NCBI GenBank assembly: GCA_017499595.2
Contig: CM039004.1
Location: 2,418,001 to 2,482,000 of the forward strand
From: Psilocybe cubensis
Lineage: Eukaryota
DNA: 64,000 nt
Reading direction: 5' to 3'
Positions 36,849 through 48,989 of this stretch are shown here, one piece after another. A program made the translations under genes and the position numbers. Position 1 is the first letter of the stretch. Every line of letters begins with the position of its first letter. The notes under the pieces are model-generated. The model made no database searches, was not told where the DNA came from, and saw only the letters and a list, made by a program, of their open reading frames with translations.

Positions 36849-39460
36849 ATGGATGGGCAGACAGGGACAGGTTTTCCGGGCGCGGGCTTTCCCCCGCCTG
36901 GAGGTCCAGCGGCACCGCCCCTGTTCATGTACCCCGCTGGCATGATGATGGTCACTCCTGACATCCTTCGTGCGCTCAGGGGGTGGACGATCTTGACCGT
37001 GAGCTGCTCCTCATTAACTCTGCTGTGTATTCATCGTCCTGATTGACTTGGTGTGTGTTTAGTACCTCGAAGGTGTGTGCGCGACGCAACGCTCGTGCGA
37101 CCATTATCGAGAACTGACTCAACACTGCGCTTAGTAACGGCCATGACACTTTTCCTGTACGACTACACTCTCACCTTCGGCATGGAATATCGCCTAGTCT
37201 GGAAGAAGCGGTCGAGCGTGATCAAACTCCTTTACATCTTCCAACGATATCTGCCCTTCTGCGATGTCGGCTTTCTGACGATATATCGTGCGTGTCGCCT
37301 TTCGTACACTTCACATCGTTAATCAATGTTTGATGAAATGATGGTTTTAGGGCACTCGTCTGCGAACCTTACGGGCCCGCAGTGTCATGTTTTGACTGTT
37401 GGGACTGGAAGTATGTCTGTCCGCCCCCTCCTAATTTGCTACCACTGTGGACTAACCGTTGTTCTCCCTCCTCCTTGTCCTAACTCTGAAGTCCTGACAT
37501 TTACCGGTGCTATTGCCTCTGAAAGTGCGCTACTACCCTTATCACCCTATCACACATGCTCCTAACCTAATTCAATTCTCACTTCTCTACTCCATTCCAC
37601 TCCACTCAACCCACTCCACTCAACTCAACCCCAACTCAACCCCAACTCAACCCAACCCACTCAACCCACTCAACTCAACCCACTCAACTCAACTTAACCC
37701 CAACTCAACTCAACTCAACCCACTCAATCCAACCCACTCAACCCAACCCACTCAACTCAACCACAACCGCAGTCCTCCTGACAATCCGCGTCTGGGCGCT
37801 CTGGAACCGCGACGCGGCACTCACCATCGCGCTGCCCATAGGCTTCGTCAGTGTTTGGGTCCCCGCGTCTGTTGCGGGGTATTTTTATATTCAGGGGCTT
37901 ATCTGTCAGTTTTTTTTTTTTCTTTTTTCTTTTTTTTCGTCCCTTTCGCTCCTTTCGTTTCTTTTTTTGTTTTTTTGTGTCGTTTCGCGTGCCGAAAAGG
38001 AGAAAGCTGATTGTTACTTATATGCCTGTGTGCGTGTGTGTGTGTGGTTGTGTGTTTTGTGTGTGTAGACCCAGAGGTCCCATTACACCCAGGCTTTTTG
38101 GGATGTGTGATCTTGAAGGATAATCATATGGTCATTTGGTGTTGGCTCGGGCTCTTGATTTGGGATACGAGTGAGTACTTTCTGTCTCTCAAATCTATGC
38201 GCATATCTCTGAATTCCTTTTTTTTTTTTGTAGTTTGTTTGATTCTGGTTGCTGTTCCTGGTGTAAAATCATGTACGTTCGCGTTCGCTCTTTTGCACAT
38301 GCACAGCAGTGCAAAGCAAAGCAAAGCAGAACAATTTCATTGACGTTGAGTCGAAAATGCAGTTCGAGCAGGTCCGGTGTCAAGGCTTGAATACGTCGTA
38401 TATCGCGATGGTAAGCACCCCTCCTTCCGCCTGTATATCAATATATCAATGCACATCCACTGACTGGTTGCCTTCATCTTCACAGGGAGCTTGTACTACC
38501 TCGTCCTCTTCGGTACGATGACGATGCCACCGCATCCTTTTTCTTTCCCCCTTTTTCTCGTTCCATTGGATGCATGGTCTGATGCCTCGTCTCGTCGCAG
38601 TGTTATCGATCCTCAATATCATCTTCAGCGCTCTCTTTCCGGTAAGCTCTCCACTGTCCTCTCACCTGCATGCATGTATGCACCATGGCTCACGTTCATT
38701 CGTTATTTGCGTTGCGTTGCGTCGGTCTACCCCACACCAGCCTAATGTTCGCGTGGTTACTCTCTCGTAGGTGTTTTGTTGTTGTTTTTTATGTCCACTT
38801 CTATGTCCTTGTTCTTTGTCCCTTGCCTGTGTACTTTGCACAAACTTCGTCCGGCGTTGATTTGTCGATTTCGATTTCGATTCTTTGCTTCTTCGCTTCG
38901 TGGAATTATCCTCGAATCGAAGATGGAGTACGGAATCTCCAAGGCCTTACCAAAGTGCCAAAGTGCATCGTGCATACTGGCGTAAAAGGACCGGAACGGA
39001 ATTCCAAACACACACAAAACGATGAACGATGAACATTGTACACTAACAAACCCTTCATCTTTCTTTTCTCTTCCATCTCTCAACCAGGTTAACAAGGGTC
39101 TTCCACTCGATGCTCGCAAGCCGCGTGCTCCTCGAGCTGAGGCAGCAGACGGACAATAACCACCCGTCCGAGTTCTCGCCGACCGAAATGGACTTTGATG
39201 AGCGGCTTGGGGCGATTGATACGGCTACTGGACATGGGTTTGGGTTTGGGTTTGGGAGGGTTGGGGGGGATTGTGAGTGTGGTGTGGAGGGCTGTGGTGG
39301 GGGTGTTGGTGTTGGGGGTGCAGGTGGAGGAGGAGGAGGTGCTGGTGCAGGTGCTGCTGGAGGTGCGGGTGCAGGTGCAGGTGTAGGAGGAGGAGGTGGT
39401 GGTGGTATGGCACGCCGGAATCGGGGCCGGAGCTTTGATTTGGACGATTTGGGAGCTTGA
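36849..39460 (+). CDS. DUF6533-type multi-pass membrane protein with Gly-rich low-complexity C-tail, many introns
   Basis: LFLYDYTLTFGMEYRLVWKKRSSVIKLLYIFQRY family signature; further LLTIRVWALW, YRDG..YYLVLF and RVFHSMLASRVLLELR segments. Confidence 0.8.
37600..37762. repeat. Degenerate CTCAA/CCCAA/CCCA minisatellite within an intron
   Basis: Runs of ccactcaacccactc / caactcaacc. Confidence 0.9.
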
Positions 39461-39583
39461 GACCTTCAGCTTGGAACGCTTTTCGAAAACTTCGACGGCG
39501 ATTTGGGTCGCGACACCCCCTTCAAGCGAATGTGAATCTTCTCACCATCTTTTTTTCGCTCTTTTTGCTTTTGACGCTGTCGG

Positions 39584-39756
39584 TGTTAGAGTTCCCTCTA
39601 ACGTAGACACACACACGTGCCTGTAGTCACATATCACACAGTATTTGTAGACACACCCGTAGCTACGTAGCCTCAGTTCCTTCTTTGTTAGCACACCCAA
39701 CACGTTCTGGTCCTTCGTCTCTCTCTCCCGCCTCGTCTCCGGGTCTCCTCCTAACA
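39584..39756 (+). repeat. 5' LTR
   Basis: Matches 45838-46010 with no difference seen by eye. Confidence 0.97.
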
Positions 39757-39773
39757 TCAAGAAGGAACTCTAA

Positions 39774-40304
39774 CACATTCAAAACATCCTCTCTCATCGC
39801 CTTTTGGCATTTCAATACCACCGTTTCCCAAACTGCCTGGACTACCTCGTTCCCCTTCGATCCTGCCCATCCAGCAGGATATCGAAGCCTGTACCGACAC
39901 TTGTGACCGCTACTCTTGGCAATTATTTTTTTTTGCAAAGAGACCTCTTGTTGCACGAAGAAACCCTGCGTATTGCTTCCAACCAGGGTGCATCTTTTGA
40001 TACCCTTCGGCGACTTACTGCTGCTGTTATAGACTGTCAACGGTCAATCTCACATACCAGAGACCTTCTCGCTTCCGCTGAAAGACAGTTGCGTTACCTA
40101 CACGACCAGGCTGATCGCGTTCGCGACCTACAAGATTGTCTGGCTACTCTGTCTCGCCGCATTGATAATCTGGCTTTTACCACCTCTCTTAGCCCTGCTA
40201 TTTTGTCTGGACTTCACGCCCGCCTTGACGATATTCTCAGCTCTCCTCTCTTCTCCAGGTCCTCTACCCCAGACAGCTTACCTGACCTTGAACCCTCCGA
40301 TTAG
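39774..40304 (+). other. Met-less upstream ORF (ORF0) in the retrotransposon leader, coiled-coil-like
   Basis: Stop-free frame between TAA 39771-39773 and TAG 40302-40304 with no ATG; heptad-like LRRLTAAVIDCQRSISHTRDLLASAERQLRYLHDQADRVRDLQDCLATLSRRIDNL. Confidence 0.4.
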
Positions 40305-40400
40305 AAGCGCATATATTCACCCTTTTGGCGCATACACCCACCCTCTCTGTTTTTTTCTCTTTCCTTTTTTTAATTCGCTTCTCGCTTATCGTTTGCACTC

Positions 40401-41585
40401 ATGCCTCCCGGAAAAAGTAAAGGTCGTTCGGTCTCCCCCCGTCGTGGTCGTGACGGTAGTGATGACGACACTGTGTCCCGAATTGACCCTGCCATTATCG
40501 CTCTCATTAAGGCTAGCCAGGAATCCAATAAAGAAACTATGAAAGATATTCTCGAACTGTCGCGTATACAAGCCGAAACTATGTTCAAATCATTCCTCGC
40601 GTTACCCCAACTCCAAACCTCTACCCACTCCTCTGCGACTACCTCTACCGCCCGCTCTGGTGATTCACGCGCTTATAAGGTGCCCTTTCCAGGTGCCTTC
40701 GACGGCTCCTCTGATACTGTCGAAGACTTGCTGGCCTCATGGCGTAACTTTTTTCACTCCGACCCCGAAGCATACAAAACCACTGATTCCAAAGTACGCA
40801 CCGCTCTCAGTTCTTTCAAGACCGGCACGCCCGCTGTCTGGCGTAACCAGCTCATTGAAGAGCTAGAGTCTGGGCAATGCGTCTTAACCAACTGGTCCGA
40901 CTTTGAGGAGCGCGTGAAAGACTCCTTCCTGTTCCATTTCTCGCAACAACGCGCGGCACGCGAGATCATGTGCATCCGTCAGAACTCCACGCCCACTCAA
41001 GAGTTCATTATTATCTTCGAGAACCTTGCCTTTCGCTCCAAGTTTAACGACGAAGCGTTGATCCAATGCTTCAAAATGGCCTTGGATAAGCGTATTATGG
41101 AGGAGATTGGACGAACACACCGTGAGATGCCCACATTCGCGGAATGGAAGAGTGCCGCAATCTTGATGGCTCACAGACTGCGTGAGACTGATGCCACGGT
41201 GACTCCGGTCGTCAACACCACCGCCACCTGGCGTCCTCCCCCTTCTTTCACCTCCACCCCTTCCACTGTTCAAAAGTCTAGCAACCCCCGCCCCGCTGCT
41301 CCTGCCCCCAACGCGACTCTACCTGCAAACATCTCCGCTGCTCCGAATCGACGTGCCGCCCTGCCCTGCTTTAACTGCGGCGTATTTGGCCACTTCATGC
41401 GAGTCTGCCCCAAACCCAAAGATCTCGAATTCCAACGCAAATCACGCGCAAAACTGGAACGAGCTCGGGCCGTCCTCGAGTGCTTTGATGCTTTGCCTGA
41501 TGACGACAAGCATGAGATTCGATGCGTTGATGTTGACGAAAGTGCCTTGTTTGATGATTCGGATTTTGTTTCTTGCGTCGAGTGA
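40401..41585 (+). CDS. gag: Gag (retrotransposon gag domain + CCHC zinc knuckle)
   Basis: PGAFDG motif, IRQ...EFIIIFENLA...LIQCFKMAL, and CFNCGVFGHFMRVC. Confidence 0.93.
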   Translation: MPPGKSKGRSVSPRRGRDGSDDDTVSRIDPAIIALIKASQESNKETMKDILELSRIQAETMFKSFLALPQLQTSTHSSATTSTARSGDSRAYKVPFPGAFDGSSDTVEDLLASWRNFFHSDPEAYKTTDSKVRTALSSFKTGTPAVWRNQLIEELESGQCVLTNWSDFEERVKDSFLFHFSQQRAAREIMCIRQNSTPTQEFIIIFENLAFRSKFNDEALIQCFKMALDKRIMEEIGRTHREMPTFAEWKSAAILMAHRLRETDATVTPVVNTTATWRPPPSFTSTPSTVQKSSNPRPAAPAPNATLPANISAAPNRRAALPCFNCGVFGHFMRVCPKPKDLEFQRKSRAKLERARAVLECFDALPDDDKHEIRCVDVDESALFDDSDFVSCVE

Positions 41586-44500
41586 GTAGTACGTCCTCGC
41601 CGCTTCTGTACAACAACCCTGTAATTACTCCCAAATTGCATGTTGCATTGTCTCCAAAATCCGTACCTCTGCCCGTGTTACCTGTTTACGCGACCCCTCA
41701 ACCTTCATTATCCAATTCTGTATTGACTCCTGACAAGCCCTCTTCTTCAACAACATCACCCAACTCCGACTACCCGACACCAACACTCCTGCCCGCGCAC
41801 CCACAACCTCCAACTATGGCACCCGATTGCATTCCATATTCAGACCTCTTTTTATCCTGTCCTGAGGATGATCCACCAGAGCTGCAAGCCCCAGATGCCT
41901 CTGATGATTCGGATGAAGATTCGCCAACCAAGCCTGCTCAACAAACCTCCGCCCACGATGATGCATCTGTCTCTATGACACACGATGCAAGTCCACCACC
42001 GGCCCCACGCGACTCTCTACTTTGCAGCCCGCCCGTCGCTGACCACACAGACTGCCCGCCTTCAATCCCTACACCTGTCCGCACCGTCCTGTGCAACTTG
42101 CGCCGATTACGCAGCACGCCTTGGCGAACCGAGAGCCTGCTCAAATCCTGGGCCCCAAAGGAGCGTTGGGACGACATTGACGATGATCTGATTGCTGCTC
42201 TTTGCGATCTCCCCTGGACCGACGCCGCCAAAGTCCTCCAGCAGCTCAAGAAGCCCCGCGACTACATCTCCCGCATGGGGAGTAAATGCCTTGACATTCC
42301 AATGTCGGCTGCACCCCCAGGCTCGACCTCTTTGGTGTCGCTGAAAGCGCTCTTAGACAGCGGTGCCACTGGTTGTTACGTGCACTCCGATTTTGTCAAA
42401 CTCAATGGATGGGTGACTGAGCGGCTGCCCCACCCCGTTAGCGTTTACAATGCAGACGGAACTCGCAATGCCAACGGTGCTATCACAGATGTTGTTTACC
42501 TTGTCATCCGCATTGAAAACCATGTTGAGCGACTCCGCCTTTCAGTCACCAACACGGGATCATCTTCCCTCATCCTCGGGCACTCCTGGCTCTGGTTCCA
42601 TAATCCGCTTGTTGACTGGCGAGAGGCCAAGCTCTGCTTTGCACGCTGCCCCACGTCCTGTGGTGCTGACGTGCTGCCGACTTCGCACCCTGATGGCGAA
42701 ACCGTGAATGTTTGCCGCGAAGGACCCCAGCTCCGTGAAGACGACATCTTTGATGACAGCCCGGGCCCCTTCACGCCGGTCTCTGCTGCGGAATGGGCTG
42801 ACGCCTTTGCTGGTGAACTTGCCGATGGTGAATCGATGTGCGCGGTTGACCTCAATGAGTTCACGTCCGAACAAGTCCATGGCTCATGCGACCACCGCAT
42901 TTCTCACTTTTTGCGAACTCAACGTGAAGCAGCTTCATATCCCGACCGCTACCTGAAGGAATTTGCACCTGTTTTCTCCAAAGAGGAGTTTGACGAGCTC
43001 CCACCCCGTCGCCCATGGGATCATGCTATTAACCTGAAACCAGATGCAAAGTCGTTCAAAGCAAAGCCGTACCGTCTGTCGCCCGCTGAAACCTCGAAGG
43101 TCAAGGAATGGATAGAAGAGGAAAAACGCACTGGCCGTATACGGGACTCCATCTCTCCCTATGCCGCCCCTTTCTTCTTCATCCAGAAAAAGGATGGCTC
43201 ACTGCGCCCTGTGCAAGACTACCGACGCCTGAACGATATCACGATCAAGAACCGCTATCCATTGCCGCTCATCTCTGACCTCATGGACAAGCTTAAAGGC
43301 GCGAAAGTATTCACCAAACTTGACGTCCGCTGGGGTTTCAATAACATTCGTATCAGGGAAGGCGATGAGCACAAGGCTGCCTTTATCACGGAGTTTGGAC
43401 TTTTTGAGCCTCTTGTAATGTTCTTTGGATTGACAAACTCACCAGCTACCTTCCAGAATATGATGAACGATCTGTTCAAGGATCTCATTGCTGGCGGCCA
43501 TGTCGTGATATATATGGATGACATCCTCATCTTCACTGATGATGTCCAGTCCCATCGACATCTTGTCCGCAATGTCTTGCAGATTCTGGAGGACAACAAG
43601 CTTTATCTGCGGCCAGAAAAGTGCTGTTTTGAGCAGGACCGTGTGGAATACTTGGGCGTCATTGTCGGCCACGGGAAAATGTCCATGGATCCCAAGAAAG
43701 TTGACGCTATCACCTCTTGGCCAATCCCGCGCTGTCGTAAGGACGTCCAACAGTTCCTCGGTTTCGTCAACTTCTACCGTAGGTTTATCAAGAACTTCTC
43801 CCGCATTGCCGCTCCCCTGCATGCCCTGGGTGGTTCGGCGCCTTGGGTATGGGACAATTTGTCAACATCCGCCTTCAACGAGCTCAAATCCGCCTGCGCT
43901 TCACACCCGGTGCTACTTCTTCCCCGCGACGGTGCCCCATTCCGCATAGAGGCAGACAGCTCTGGATACGCAACCGGCGCGGTGCTCAGCCAATTTGTTG
44001 ACAATTCCTGGCAACCGGTCGCGTTTGCTTCAAAAGCCCTCAGTCCCGTTGAGCGCAACTACGAGATACATGACCGCGAACTACTGTCAATCATGAGGTC
44101 TCTCGATGACTGGCGACGCTACCTCCACGGCTCCGATTCTCCTGTTGAGATCCACACCGATCACAAGAACCTTCAGTATTTCATGACCGCTCAGAAATTG
44201 AACCGTCGTCAGGCTCGCTGGTCCCTGCAGCTCGCTGAATTCGATTTCGTACTCGTCCACAAGCCAGGCCCGACCATGATCTGCGCAGACTCGTTGTCCC
44301 GCCGCCCCGACTACGATAAAGGTGTTGGCGACAACGAAAACGTCACCTTACTGCGCCCAGAACACATTCGACGTACTGCTGAATGCTCAATTGGGGATGA
44401 CCCCGTCCTGGCTGACATTCGAACTCACCAGCACCAAATCACTGAAATGTGGGAAAAGCACAAGAACCTGCCTGGCTGGTCCCTCCACGACGGCTTGCTT

Positions 44501-45826
44501 TCATGGCATAACCGAATCTTTGTGCCAAACAAAGGCAACTTGCGTCAACGAATACTCGCCGACTGTCATGATCACCAATCCGTAGGCCACCCTGGCCGGA
44601 TGAAGACCATGGAACTCGTCCTGCGCGACTATTGGTGGCCGTCACTATCAAAAGACGCGAAGCGTTACGTTGATGGATGCCCCACCTGTCAATCAACTAA
44701 GCCTCTGAGGATGGCGCCCGCGGGCCTACTGACCCCCAACGAAATCCCTTCCTCCAATTGGGAGATCATTTCCTGTGATCTCATCGTGGACTTACCTAAA
44801 TCTCGCGGCTTCGATTCGATCTTTGTCGTCGTCGATAGACTCTCAAAAATGGTTCGTATCATCCCATGCAAAAAGTCAATCACTTCTGAGGGTCTCGCGC
44901 GCCTCTTCCGCGACCATGTCTGGAAAGACTTCGGACTGCCACGACGCATCATCTCCGACCGTGGTTCAATCTTCCTGTCAAACTTTACTCGGGCCCTCAA
45001 CGACCTGCTAGGCATTTCACAGAACGCGTCCACCGCATTTCGACCTCAAACAGACGGACAAACTGAGCGCGTCAATCAAGAAATCGAACAATACCTACGG
45101 ATCTTTGTGAATAACAGGCAAAATGATTGGGTGGAATGGCTTGCATGCGCCGAATTTGCTATCAACAATAAGATTCACTCGTCCACTGGCTTCTCGCCCT
45201 TCTTCCTAAACTATGGCTCCAACCCCCGCCGAACCCTGCAACCCGCACGCCTCTCGGACGACCGTGTCCCCAAAGCTCTTGAATTCGCCTCTCAAATGGA
45301 TTCCCTCGCGAAGGAATCCGCTTCAGCGCTAAACCTCGCCGCTGATGCAATGAAGCGATCCTATGACACCTCTCACCGCGCTCCACCCGTCTTCAATGTT
45401 GGCGACATGGTGATGCTCAGCGCCTCCGACATCAAGTCCTCACGTCCGTCTAAAAAGCTCGATGTTAAGCGTCACGGACCTTTTCCTGTGACGAAACGCG
45501 TTGGCATCCAGTCTTACACCCTCGACCTACCGGCCTCGTGGTCGATCCACCCTACTTTCCATGTCTCTAAACTCTCCCGTTTCATACCAGCAGAATTCGA
45601 TTCCCAAACTTCACCCGCGACACCAACACCTCCCCCCGCGTTACCACCCCCAGACATTGCAAGTGTGCTCGGCCACAGGGCCCTGCGCAGTGGAACACAG
45701 TTCCTCGTGCTGCTCGATGGCTGCACAGAGGAAGACGCTTCGTGGTCAAGCCACTCATCCTTCCCTAACTCTGAAGTACTAAACAATTACATACGCCTCC
45801 ACAACATCCCGGACGCCCACCTTTAA
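41558..45826 (+). CDS. pol: Pol (protease, RT, RNase H, integrase, degenerate chromodomain) in -1 frame to gag
   Basis: LLDSGAT protease; KLDVRWGF / MFFGLTNSPATFQ / YMDD RT; ADSSGYATGAVL, NYEIHDRELL RNase H; H..GHPG..CPTC, SCDL, SDRG, QTDGQTER integrase; GPF motif. Frame opens at 41558. Confidence 0.96.
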   Translation, partial: FGFCFLRRVSSTSSPLLYNNPVITPKLHVALSPKSVPLPVLPVYATPQPSLSNSVLTPDKPSSSTTSPNSDYPTPTLLPAHPQPPTMAPDCIPYSDLFLSCPEDDPPELQAPDASDDSDEDSPTKPAQQTSAHDDASVSMTHDASPPPAPRDSLLCSPPVADHTDCPPSIPTPVRTVLCNLRRLRSTPWRTESLLKSWAPKERWDDIDDDLIAALCDLPWTDAAKVLQQLKKPRDYISRMGSKCLDIPMSAAPPGSTSLVSLKALLDSGATGCYVHSDFVKLNGWVTERLPHPVSVYNADGTRNANGAITDVVYLVIRIENHVERLRLSVTNTGSSSLILGHSWLWFHNPLVDWREAKLCFARCPTSCGADVLPTSHPDGETVNVCREGPQLREDDIFDDSPGPFTPVSAAEWADAFAGELADGESMCAVDLNEFTSEQVHGSCDHRISHFLRTQREAASYPDRYLKEFAPVFSKEEFDELPPRRPWDHAINLKPDAKSFKAKPYRLSPAETSKVKEWIEEEKRTGRIRDSISPYAAPFFFIQKKDGSLRPVQDYRRLNDITIKNRYPLPLISDLMDKLKGAKVFTKLDVRWGFNNIRIREGDEHKAAFITEFGLFEPLVMFFGLTNSPATFQNMMNDLFKDLIAGGHVVIYMDDILIFTDDVQSHRHLVRNVLQILEDNKLYLRPEKCCFEQDRVEYLGVIVGHGKMSMDPKKVDAITSWPIPRCRKDVQQFLGFVNFYRRFIKNFSRIAAPLHALGGSAPWVWDNLSTSAFNELKSACASHPVLLLPRDGAPFRIEADSSGYATGAVLSQFVDNSWQPVAFASKALSPVERNYEIHDRELLSIMRSLDDWRRYLHGSDSPVEIHTDHKNLQYFMTAQKLNRRQARWSLQLAEFDFVLVHKPGPTMICADSLSRRPDYDKGVGDNENVTLLRPEHIRRTAECSIGDDPVLADIRTHQHQITEMWEKHKNLPGWSLHDGLLSWHNRIFVPNKGNLRQRILADCHDHQSVGHPGRMKTMELVLRDYWWPSLSKDAKRYVDGCPTCQSTKPLRMAPAGLLTPNEIPSSNWEIISCDLIVDLPKSRGFDSIFVVVDRLSKMVRIIPCKKSITSEGLARLFRDHVWKDFGLPRRIISDRGSIFLSNFTRALNDLLGISQNASTAFRPQTDGQTERVNQEIEQYLRIFVNNRQNDWVEWLACAEFAINNKIHSSTGFSPFFLNYGSNPRRTLQPARLSDDRVPKALEFASQMDSLAKESASALNLAADAMKRSYDTSHRAPPVFNVGDMVMLSASDIKSSRPSKKLDVKRHGPFPVTKRVGIQSYTLDLPASWSIHPTFHVSKLSRFIPAEFDSQTSPATPTPPPALPPPDIASVLGHRALRSGTQFLVLLDGCTEEDASWSSHSSFPNSEVLNNYIRLHNIPDAHL

Positions 45827-45837
45827 GAGGGGGGTGA

Positions 45838-46010
45838 TGTTAGAGTTCCCTCTAACGTAGACACACACACGTGCCTGTAGTCACATATCACACAGTATTT
45901 GTAGACACACCCGTAGCTACGTAGCCTCAGTTCCTTCTTTGTTAGCACACCCAACACGTTCTGGTCCTTCGTCTCTCTCTCCCGCCTCGTCTCCGGGTCT
46001 CCTCCTAACA
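45838..46010 (+). repeat. 3' LTR
   Basis: Follows the polypurine tract; followed by TSD GTCGG. Confidence 0.97.
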
Positions 46011-48989
46011 GTCGGACTTGCGCGTGTTGTTGATGGTGGTGCTGTTGCTGTGGGTTATTGGTGTGGGTTATTGGTGTGGGTTGCTGGTGTGGGTTGCTGT
46101 TGCTGGTGCCTGTGCCATTGGCGGGTGGGAAGTGGGAAGCGGGGGATTATGGGTTATGGGTTAGGGATTGAAGAACATTTTTCTTTGGAGGATTTTGGCG
46201 AGTCGGGGCGAAATCGAAATCGAAATCGAAATCAAGTTCGGTTTTCAATGGATGGAGAGGAGCACGATTTGGGACGCGGCACACCTACCTACCCAACCGG
46301 CCAACCAACCGACCGAGCGACCGACTGACCGAGCGAACGACTGACTGAGCGAACGACCGAGCGACTAAATGGACGAGCTGTCTATAAGAATTCGAGATGG
46401 CGCGGGTCGCAGCGACCGAGAATTGGGCACGTCGCGCGGTTTAGCGCGCACGCGCACTCGCACACGAGATAGGCGATTCGAAATGTGCGTGTGCGTGAAG
46501 GGCCCTTAGCGCTCTGAGGTGTTTCGGGCGCAGAATACGAAGGGCAAAGGCAAAGAGCAATGGCAATCAAAGACAAAGACAAAGACAGAGCGAAGACGAA
46601 GCGGAGGCTCGGAGAAGCAGCCCATGGGCCATAGCCCAAGGTTTCAAATTTCATTATTCAATTATAGACCAATCAACAATCAATTATAATATTTTACAGT
46701 GGCGGCTTGTGTTATGGTTATGTATGTACTTTTCTTATATTAATAATGGGTGTGTAATGCGTGTAATTATGTGTGTGGGTGGGATGTGTATAGATCTTTA
46801 ATATCTCTTAATATCTTTTTGCGATGTTTTCTTGTGGTTTTCTTAAAATGGGTCGGATAATGCGCTGCGCGACGCCACAGATGTGTTGCGAGGGTTTGCG
46901 AGTGCGCGCGCGCGGGGTGACGTCGCTTGTCAGCTTTGTGGGTTGCGCCGGGGGTATGCGTATGTGCTTTTGTTTCGGTATTTTGGCTGGGACTGGGAGC
47001 CTGGGACGACGACGAACTTGGTTTCAGCGGTTTAAATGTTTAACAGTGTGGCTATCCCATTGAACAAGAGTAACCGTGCTAGTAACCGAAACGTACGGAT
47101 AAACCAATGTTTGGAGGAGGGGAGGGGCTATTCCTGCCGCGAGGGACTTTCTTTAGAAACCCCACACAATCACACAATCGCAATCGCAATGCAACCCCCC
47201 CCCCTCCCCCTCAGACGTCGACGCGCCATCAGCCACCTTGACCAGTTGTTCTCATTGTCATTCTGTAGCGCTGCTGGCCCTGCCGACTGCGGTGCAGATA
47301 TAATGATGGCTTGGTTTCTTCTTATGTGCAATTCACTTATAACTTCCCTTGTCCTCGAGTAATACTGAGTACTACTCTCCCCGTTTGTCTTGGGGTTCGC
47401 TTTGTACTGCTACTTGTGTTGTGGCTTTTATATGCGGCGGCGGCCCTCGCTGTAGGTTGAAGCTTGAAGCTTGAAGTGTTATAGAATGGAGCTGGGAGAT
47501 GCTGCGTCGCAAGCGCAGACTATTAATGCTTTGAAAGGGCTGAGCTTGGCACTACGCGCAGCAATCATTTTTAGATTGTCACAAATGTTGAAAAAATTTG
47601 ATGGAGAATAATGACTGGATTATTTCCGCAAAAGCGTCTAAAAAAGAGTCGAAGAAATTAAAATTAGGCAATATCTTTACAAGAACGGTAAATTTGATGA
47701 CACATATGTACTTTACCAACTGAATAAAATTGACATTTTGTATTAAACTTTGGTATATGAACAATAAATAATGCCCGACGATCATATATTTTATTTTTGA
47801 TAATTCATTTTTGCCTCTGCCAAAAACAATAAAACAATCAAAATAGGTCAATCTTTTTGTCATTTCCGGACAGGAGTTATCAAAATAAAAATGTTTGAAT
47901 ATCAAAAAATAATAAACAGGTACCTGCCAGGTACCGTGGCAGTACTGGTCAAGTACAGCACGTACCAGTCCTTTACGCGTCCTGGCTTTTGATCCATTCT
48001 AGATACCAAAACCTCACACGTGACTCTGATCAAAGCTTTTGATTCAAGGACGGCCATGGCCATTGCCAGGTGCCATATGTTCCAGTAAGTCGCGTTAATT
48101 GACCTAACCACCACTGTAGACAAGCTCCATGATCTGACAGCTACAATCCAGTAGTCACAACGATCAGTTGGGATGACGATTATGGAGACGAAGGTCGGAT
48201 TACAGGAGAAAAACGTGGGCCCGTACATGTATTCCACAGCCTGGGACGGCGACATTGCAGATGCCACATTTTTATCACTCCATTATTTTCAATGAACAGA
48301 TCACTGATTGCACTTGTTCTTCTTCTGACAGCTGTCTATATCTCTAAGAAGTAAACTTTCCGTGACTTCTGTCTTCTACCCTGTATCCTCGGGTCTCTGG
48401 TCCTGTCCATATGCTAGCATTGTTTCAAAAATGTAGCTATATTCCATTACAATCAATGTACCACCAACATCTGTTTGATTTCACTCGGCTGCCCTTGGAA
48501 TTTTGTTTCTTCCTGCAAGTAGATGAAGCCCAGTTTTAAGAGACTCCATACCAGCCCAGCGGAAGACACCCGAGAATCTTCCCTGTCCTACACAAGTCGT
48601 TCACAGCGCACGCAGTTGTGCTACGGACGACTTGTTTTCAAGCATCCGGCTCGCTGATTAGCTCCTGTGCGACCAAAAAGTACGGGTTGTATGGCGATTT
48701 TGCTTGTGACATGTCATGCTCCCGCATCGGCAACACAGCCATGCCATTGACCTTTGATTTCTCGGTGAGCTCTGGCGAGGGCCCGTACCCATTTGACATT
48801 CCGAATGATCTGAGAATACTTCGGCAAAAATATACGTATGGGATTTACATTATAATGTTGTAATTGTGTCGGACTCCTGAAAATAACCAAACGTGGTACG
48901 TATATTTAGGTAGCCCGAGGGAATACACTGTTGTAACATATCATAACTCTATCAGCCAGTATAATTAGAAGTTTGAAGGTAGGGTATGC

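Follow-up and report, generated by a model that had tools for sequence, protein, structure and literature searches.

Extra open reading frames (ORFs) in retrotransposons that bear long terminal repeats (LTRs), and leaky scanning through AUG-free ORFs in pararetroviruses, are already known. In rice tungro bacilliform virus (RTBV), ORF I is described as starting at AUU and as being passed by ∼90% of ribosomes, and ORFs I and II are AUG-free over 900 nt (PMC5902531). The virion-associated protein (VAP) of Caulimoviridae, encoded by ORF III of cauliflower mosaic virus and by ORF II of badnaviruses and RTBV, is a small coiled-coil protein whose Pro-rich C-terminus is anchored in the capsid (PMC4974523). 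Additional conserved ORFs (aORFs), either upstream or downstream of gag-pol, are known from plant Ty3/gypsy elements and are described as being of unknown function and as occurring in most copies (PMC7264820). In murine leukemia virus (MLV), the unspliced genomic RNA has a leader CUG, ahead of the gag AUG, at which translation of glyco-Gag begins (PMC3042739). Non-AUG initiation has also been reported in fungi (PMC5487733). Here we describe a 64,000-nucleotide stretch of Psilocybe cubensis DNA (contig CM039004.1 of assembly GCA_017499595.2, positions 2,418,001 to 2,482,000; hereafter the window) that holds, on its plus strand, an intact Ty3/gypsy LTR retrotransposon (39584-46010) with a long AUG-free leader and, within that leader, a Met-free frame ahead of gag that we call ORF0. 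The explanation that best fits the data, and to which we give an even chance of being right, is that ORF0 is a conserved accessory coiled-coil gene that would be translated inefficiently from a non-AUG codon, with most ribosomes scanning on to gag.

Under this proposal, the gene would comprise ∼180 codons, from just past the primer-binding site (PBS) to position 40304, and its product would consist of a Pro/Ser-rich N-terminal part, a long amphipathic helix of the coiled-coil type, and an acidic, disordered tail carrying the conserved motif STPDSLP-[DE]-LE. A minority of scanning ribosomes would initiate ORF0 at a near-cognate codon, for which the CUGs at 39833 and 39863 in the homologous frame are the foremost candidates, and the majority would continue over 726 AUG-free nt until they reach the AUG of gag at 40401 (leaky scanning). 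The absence of Met and of any out-of-frame ATG from ORF0 would then be the cost of a position upstream of gag. Because no sense-strand ATG lies upstream, a non-AUG start is the only route by which ORF0 could be translated from the element's own RNA.

The AUG-free leader and the frame ahead of gag

The distance between the plus-strand ATGs at 39530 and 40401 (871 nt) is the longest such gap among the 1084 plus-strand ATGs of the window, with a runner-up of 498 nt. An earlier note on this stretch, made from the letters alone, had described the region from 39675 to gag as ATG-free and had proposed that AUGs were depleted there. The region proved to be longer still, running from 39531 to 40400 and including the whole 5′ LTR, and the depletion is statistically real. 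Within the part that would form the leader of the genomic RNA (39675-40400; 726 nt), 63 of the 64 trinucleotides are present and ATG is the sole absentee; dinucleotide-preserving shuffles (n = 2000) held 5.5 ATGs on average, and only 0.15% of them held none.

One frame of the leader stays open for 176 codons and ends in TAG (39774-40304 in the list of ORFs, window frame 0), as the earlier note had drawn it; the TAG occupies 40302-40304 and is followed in frame by a TAA at 40371-40373. An open frame of this length is only moderately unusual, given the pyrimidine-rich leader (64% C+T, few stop triplets): among 3000 shuffles of 39757-40400, 1.1% had an open frame of at least 176 codons and 3.9% had one of at least 150 codons. 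Coding-like position-specific composition was confined to the last ∼120 codons (39942-40301), and this C-terminal part is also conserved. A phmmer search of 1.84 billion representative proteins gave three matches at E≤0.001, among them P0005, a predicted P. cubensis protein of 203 residues (E 7.8e-21, 48% identity), with which the C-terminal part of ORF0 shares 56 of 120 residues (47%) without a single gap. Another match, P0006 (E 7e-6), is a repeat protein of 738 residues with five repeated stretches, and we discounted it as a chance match.

Upstream of this part, conservation follows another frame. P0007, a 208-residue variant in the P0005 cluster (P0005/P0007 locus: NCBI protein XP_047742970.1, locus tag JR316_0012456), matches the window through its residues 36-84 in frame 2 (39755-39934), which encodes the Pro/Ser-rich N-terminal part of the conserved ORF; 23 of 53 positions are identical, with one 4-codon indel and a pairwise E of 4e-11, and the same part of P0007 gave no match to window frames 0 and 1 at E≤100. 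Of the 176-codon ORF0, only the last ∼120 codons match the relative in this frame; the first ∼53 match nothing in it and do not belong to the conserved ORF. A TTG at 39804 that had been suggested as a start codon sits in this non-homologous portion. The junction of frames 2 and 0 coincides with nine consecutive Ts (T9; 39926-39934). In a DNA contig of run X1, which is otherwise identical across 39740-45830 (6.1 kb), one of these is missing (at 39926), and with T8 at the junction the conserved frame is continuous over 39755-40304, or ∼182 codons. The ninth T reflects either an assembly error in a homopolymer or a recent slippage mutation of the window copy.

P0005 and P0007 read like the equivalent leader of a diverged sister element family. 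The N-terminus of P0007 (GSPPNIKKEL) is translated LTR-end and PBS sequence that is encoded in the window too, and across this U5/PBS region P0007 matches window frames 1, 0, and then 2 within ∼35 codons. Frame hopping of this kind is what one would expect of non-coding sequence, and it provides an internal control against which to judge the constancy of the ORF0 frame, in which the T9 run is the sole break over ∼180 codons and is not shared by the X1 contig. Both families are also devoid of Met: there is none in the 207 residues that follow M1 of P0007 and none in the window ORF0, compared with 9 in the 394 residues of Gag and 24 in the 1422 residues of Pol. As for M1 itself, it precedes by three codons the part equivalent to the putative RNA 5′ end, which places it probably in U3 and outside the genomic RNA.

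A pyrimidine-rich spacer of 96 nt (40305-40400) separates ORF0 from gag. Two ways of joining the frames were considered and rejected: an in-frame intron (GT 40259, AG 40416-40417) has a poor donor and an atypical length of 159 nt, as judged by eye, and read-through of both stops is implausible. The sequence GCGCATA is repeated in the spacer (40302-40400). ATG-initiated ORFs on the antisense strand (44-71 codons) occur at the edges of ORF0 only, and none lies beneath the conserved part.

Protein-level signals and competing explanations

The pattern of conservation within ORF0 resembles that of a helical protein. Hydrophobicity along ORF0 has a 3.5-residue period that is common to the window copy and its relative, and none of 5000 permutations reached equal power. 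AlphaFold2, given a two-row alignment, predicted a single long helix of 63 residues (C-terminal part residues 19-81; 39996-40184) with predicted local distance difference test (pLDDT) values of 87-96 in blocks, in agreement with the amphipathic heptads recognized in the earlier note. Within this helix, identity between the two families recurs with a 3.4-residue period (permutation p 0.012-0.017), and hydrophobic residues are conserved more often than others (13 of 19 vs 13 of 44; Fisher p 0.006). The acidic C-terminal tail that had been pointed out before holds a conserved motif, SR-x-STPDSLP-[DE]-LE (40254-40292), with 11 of 13 positions identical in both families, in a segment predicted to be disordered (pLDDT <50). 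Substitutions between the families are somewhat conservative: the mean BLOSUM62 score of mismatches was −0.45, compared with −0.80 ± 0.20 in neutral simulations at equal identity, of which 3.6-4.7% scored as high. A homodimer prediction for the C-terminal part, run without controls, scored 0.01 and gave no answer. Taken singly these tests are modest; jointly they favor selection acting on a protein.

Several observations weigh against ORF0 as a translated gene. No candidate start codon appears preferable on the evidence. In the homologous frame, a purine occupies −3 at AUU 39809, CUG 39833, CUG 39863, and AUC 39881; the two CUGs have A at −3 and C at +4, and both favored context bases are found only at AUC 39881 and at AUA 40029. 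Codon usage in the C-terminal part scored 0.03 in the best of three frames, as against 0.15-0.31 for pieces of gag, and the frame of the window copy is broken at T9 relative to its homologue. Resampling of synonymous codons in ORF0 gave an expectation of 1.9 out-of-frame ATGs and a probability of 0.11 of finding none; because of this value, ATG avoidance at synonymous sites is not demonstrable, and the depletion is carried mainly by the amino acid sequence. The excess of conservative substitutions is marginal, and neutral drift to the same identity left 8-11% of simulations free of stops over 120 codons. The P0005 family comes from the same species, is represented by a predicted protein, and was chosen because it is open, which is a form of ascertainment. 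None of the three phmmer matches is an ORF0 relative from outside P. cubensis. Metagenome scans gave 131 pattern matches with the ORF0 alignment and 106 with Gag, with none confirmed in either case, and a scan of viral contigs with Gag gave three pattern matches, none of them confirmed. Two sequencing runs presumed to be RNA (X2 and X3) yielded no match to the element, which bears neither way on its expression.

Searches for a known family were likewise negative. Profile searches added to the earlier matches only further chimeric P. cubensis models; the only Pfam matches of ORF0 at E≤10 were to four helical families, all below threshold, with none from caulimoviruses among them; the ESM Atlas gave no family for ORF0 (best score 0.80, recognition 1379); and Foldseek against the BFVD viral models gave no match at E≤0.001 among 60 with E≤10. 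As to function, our guess is that the product would be an oligomeric adaptor with a tail that attaches it to Gag particles or to some host factor; nothing speaks for the restriction factor that had also been suggested. The idea of an accessory protein keeps the support of protein-level conservation in a second Met-free family and loses the frame of its N-terminal part and its start codon as they were first drawn.

One alternative, which we consider unlikely, is that the leader is not translated at all. It would then be kept AUG-free for scanning from the cap to gag and would serve RNA roles (self-priming, packaging, dimerization), the open frame would be a by-product of pyrimidine richness, and the similarity to P0005 would reflect conservation of the RNA in cis. 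Several observations fit this explanation: the scarcity of stops and the shuffle frequencies given above, the weak codon-usage score, the lack of ATG avoidance at synonymous sites, the T9 frameshift of the window copy, the marginal excess of conservative substitutions, and a strong self-priming structure at the 5′ end. However, constraint on RNA does not predict a 3.4-residue period of conservation or a hydrophobic bias (p 0.006-0.017), nor the contrast between an ungapped stretch of 120 codons with a single 4-codon indel over another ∼55, on the one hand, and two frame changes in ∼35 U5/PBS codons on the other. Beyond the PBS, moreover, the leader is not unusually structured, folding no better than shuffled sequence (z −1.38, with 2 of 20 shuffles as stable), and has no match in Rfam. 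This lack of unusual structure fits scanning and does not favor a purely structural RNA.

A second alternative, which we find rather improbable, is that ORF0 is a real exon that obtains its AUG from another messenger, either a transcript that starts upstream, in U3 or flanking host DNA, or one spliced into the AG at 39939-39940; the products would be fusions of host exons with ORF0 or, for the sister family, a protein initiated at the ATG of its LTR. A T-rich tract followed by AG does precede the conserved C-terminal part, the LTR of P0007 supplies an ATG in frame, and six public gene models (P0002, P0003, P0004, P0008, P0009, and P0010) join the C-terminal part as terminal exon to host or LTR-start exons through exactly this acceptor. 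These models, however, are gene predictions, which must find an ATG somewhere. Use of the acceptor would also cut the conserved ORF, as the part upstream of it is conserved at the protein level, and ATG is wholly absent from the LTR of the window copy, while the U5/PBS frames are not conserved between families. Finally, a mobile element cannot depend on host exons at every new site.

Least likely, and to our minds very doubtful, is that ORF0 is a decaying relic, either of a former N-terminal Gag domain or of a gene that recently lost its AUG: the C-terminal part does lie in the gag frame only 96 nt upstream, other Ty3/gypsy elements have coiled-coil N-terminal Gag regions (Cer1 of Caenorhabditis elegans is described as having such a Gag N-terminus as well as an accessory protein; PMC10309623), and the T9 frameshift and weak codon-usage score would suit decay, but independent decay is not expected to leave two families, with more than half of their residues different, both open and Met-free, two stop codons stand between ORF0 and gag, ORF0 has no similarity to the element's Gag (best E 0.69), and no Gag-fused form was found among 7999 longer-protein candidates, of which two matched, both as host-gene chimeras.

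The host element and its chimeric gene models

The element that carries ORF0 is complete and has the features of the Ty3/gypsy group (Metaviridae), namely its LTR ends, target-site duplication, polypurine tract, Gag CCHC knuckle, and order of pol domains; all of its features given here lie on the plus strand. The 5′ LTR (39584-39756), which contains no plus-strand ATG, and the 3′ LTR (45838-46010) are each 173 bp, run from TG to CA, and are 100% identical. The flanking sequence shows a target-site duplication, GTCGG, at 39579-39583 and again at 46011-46015, and the polypurine tract AAGAGGGGGG (45825-45834) precedes the 3′ LTR. The gag gene (40401-41585; 394 residues, start context CTCATGC) is in the frame of the ORF0 C-terminal part and encodes Retrotrans_gag (Pfam E 1.1e-5) and a CCHC knuckle (zf-CCHC, 1.8e-4). 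It overlaps by 28 nt (41558-41585) with the pol frame (41558-45826; −1 relative to gag), which encodes protease, reverse transcriptase, RNase H, integrase, and a Tf2-type SH3 domain (RVT_1, 3.6e-35; RT_RNaseH, 1.4e-33; Integrase_H2C2, 1.1e-20; SH3_Tf2-1, 4.3e-18); the rve match in pol, at 31.9 bits, is slightly below the Pfam cut-off of 32.6. The label of chromovirus given to the element earlier is not established, as the Pfam Chromo match at the expected place, the integrase C-terminus, reached only 11.4 bits (E 0.32) against a cut-off of 25.1. This sub-threshold match lies at 45660-45770 (pol residues ∼1369-1403), behind the Tf2-type SH3 domain.

No second copy of the element occurs within the 64-kb window. 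The ORF0 C-terminal part is found at a minimum of four host loci with 99-100% identity, and at 47% in the second family, in the one species examined. Together with the identical LTRs, this near-identity indicates that the element family is recently active and that ORF0 is carried in transposition-competent copies.

The start of the genomic RNA can be placed by analogy with Tf1, which is reported to prime reverse transcription with the first 11 bases of its own RNA (PMC7175516). In the P. cubensis element, an 11-nt segment inside the 5′ LTR, AGTTCCTTCTT (39675-39685), is complementary to a PBS of the self-priming type, AAGAAGGAACT (39759-39769), which lies 2 nt past the LTR and is without the TGG of a tRNA-type site. 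When RNA 39676-39790 was folded, 39676-39685 paired with 39759-39768 in a structure of −24.8 kcal/mol (z −5.17), and none of 200 shuffles was equally stable. On the basis of the Tf1 analogy and this complementarity, we infer that the genomic RNA begins at ∼39675, which would give a leader of 726 nt up to gag. An A/T-rich TATTTGTA (39642-39649), 26-33 nt 5′ of this putative start, is possibly a TATA-like box. The beginning of the LTR (39584-39595) is also complementary to 39764-39775.

The six models that end in the ORF0 C-terminal part are probably annotation artefacts from an unmasked retrotransposon. The first three P. cubensis models found hold the exact 120-residue C-terminal part (100% identity) behind unrelated N-termini, and in the chimeric models a host exon is joined to this part at the acceptor AG 39939-39940. 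P0008 corresponds to the locus described here, fused to an upstream Gly-rich host ORF (39047-39460); P0009 is a fusion with glycogen debranching enzyme and P0010 one with glucose-6-phosphate 1-epimerase; P0002 and P0003 carry a SERF-like exon, and one of them is named ‘BLOC-1-related complex subunit 5’. If they are artefacts, gene predictors make false chimeric host genes from ORF0, and annotations need masking. In the upstream host ORF, a Gly/Ala-rich segment is encoded by a G-rich imperfect repeat with a 9-21-nt period (GGT/GGA/GCA units; 39230-39415), which lies ∼170 nt ahead of the insertion site, and a second repeat block, rich in C and A, is found at 37569-37772.

Comparison with known systems

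In its priming, the P. cubensis element resembles the Tf1/sushi group (Tf1 and Tf2, with Tcn1 proposed): 11 nt within the LTR are complementary to a site just past it, a tRNA-type PBS is lacking, the stem predicted from this complementarity is strong (z −5.17), and the integrase has a Tf2-type SH3 domain. It differs in that its RNA 5′ end is placed from sequence. It also differs in its gene content, as Tf1, to our knowledge, has one gag-pol ORF and no ORF between PBS and gag.

With the aORFs of plant Ty3/gypsy elements, ORF0 shares the traits of presence in most copies and conservation between families, as far as the one species examined goes. It is not homologous to them by phmmer and its host is a basidiomycete; most aORFs are located after pol and before the 3′ LTR, and those described are not reported as AUG-less in the available text of their description (PMC7264820). 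As ORFs upstream of gag are described there, the earlier note's view of an extra 5′ gene as ‘undescribed’ was overstated. In the literature covered, with subscription journals and supplementary files outside its scope, we came upon no description of a conserved ORF that lacks AUG and precedes gag in a fungal LTR retrotransposon. MLV glyco-Gag is an in-frame extension of Gag, whereas ORF0 is cut off from gag by the stops at 40302 and 40371, so its product would be a separate protein.

VAP offers a functional analogy, with no claim of membership. ORF0 would encode a protein of ∼20 kDa with a predicted helix of 63 residues and a conserved Pro/acidic tail, and it ends 96 nt before gag. In VAP, however, the coiled coil is N-terminal, whereas in ORF0 the Pro/Ser-rich part precedes the helix, and similarity gives no link, with no match to a Pfam caulimovirus family, to viral proteins by phmmer, or to BFVD models by Foldseek. 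It is conceivable, though improbable in our estimation, that this lineage of fungal Ty3/gypsy elements has, directly ahead of gag, a gene for a coiled-coil protein that is associated with particles as VAP is, is expressed in the manner of badnaviruses, and docks through its conserved tail on Gag or a host factor. Were this so, a coiled-coil gene ahead of the capsid gene, combined with leaky scanning, would be either shared by Metaviridae and Caulimoviridae or have arisen twice.

A close parallel in gene arrangement is that of RTBV and the badnaviruses, in which an AUG-less upstream ORF likewise precedes the capsid gene; the AUG-free distance in the P. cubensis element is 726-871 nt. ORF0 has no sequence similarity to these viruses by Pfam or phmmer, and the settings differ, in that they are DNA pararetroviruses of plants with a shunt structure in front, whereas ORF0 belongs to a fungal LTR retrotransposon and is known from sequence. 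If ORF0 is translated, this element would be a fungal LTR retrotransposon with a third gene that standard annotation, which looks for an ATG, does not see, and it would provide a simple, recently active system in which to study small coiled-coil partners of Gag. It would also extend to fungi a strategy so far documented for plant pararetroviruses.

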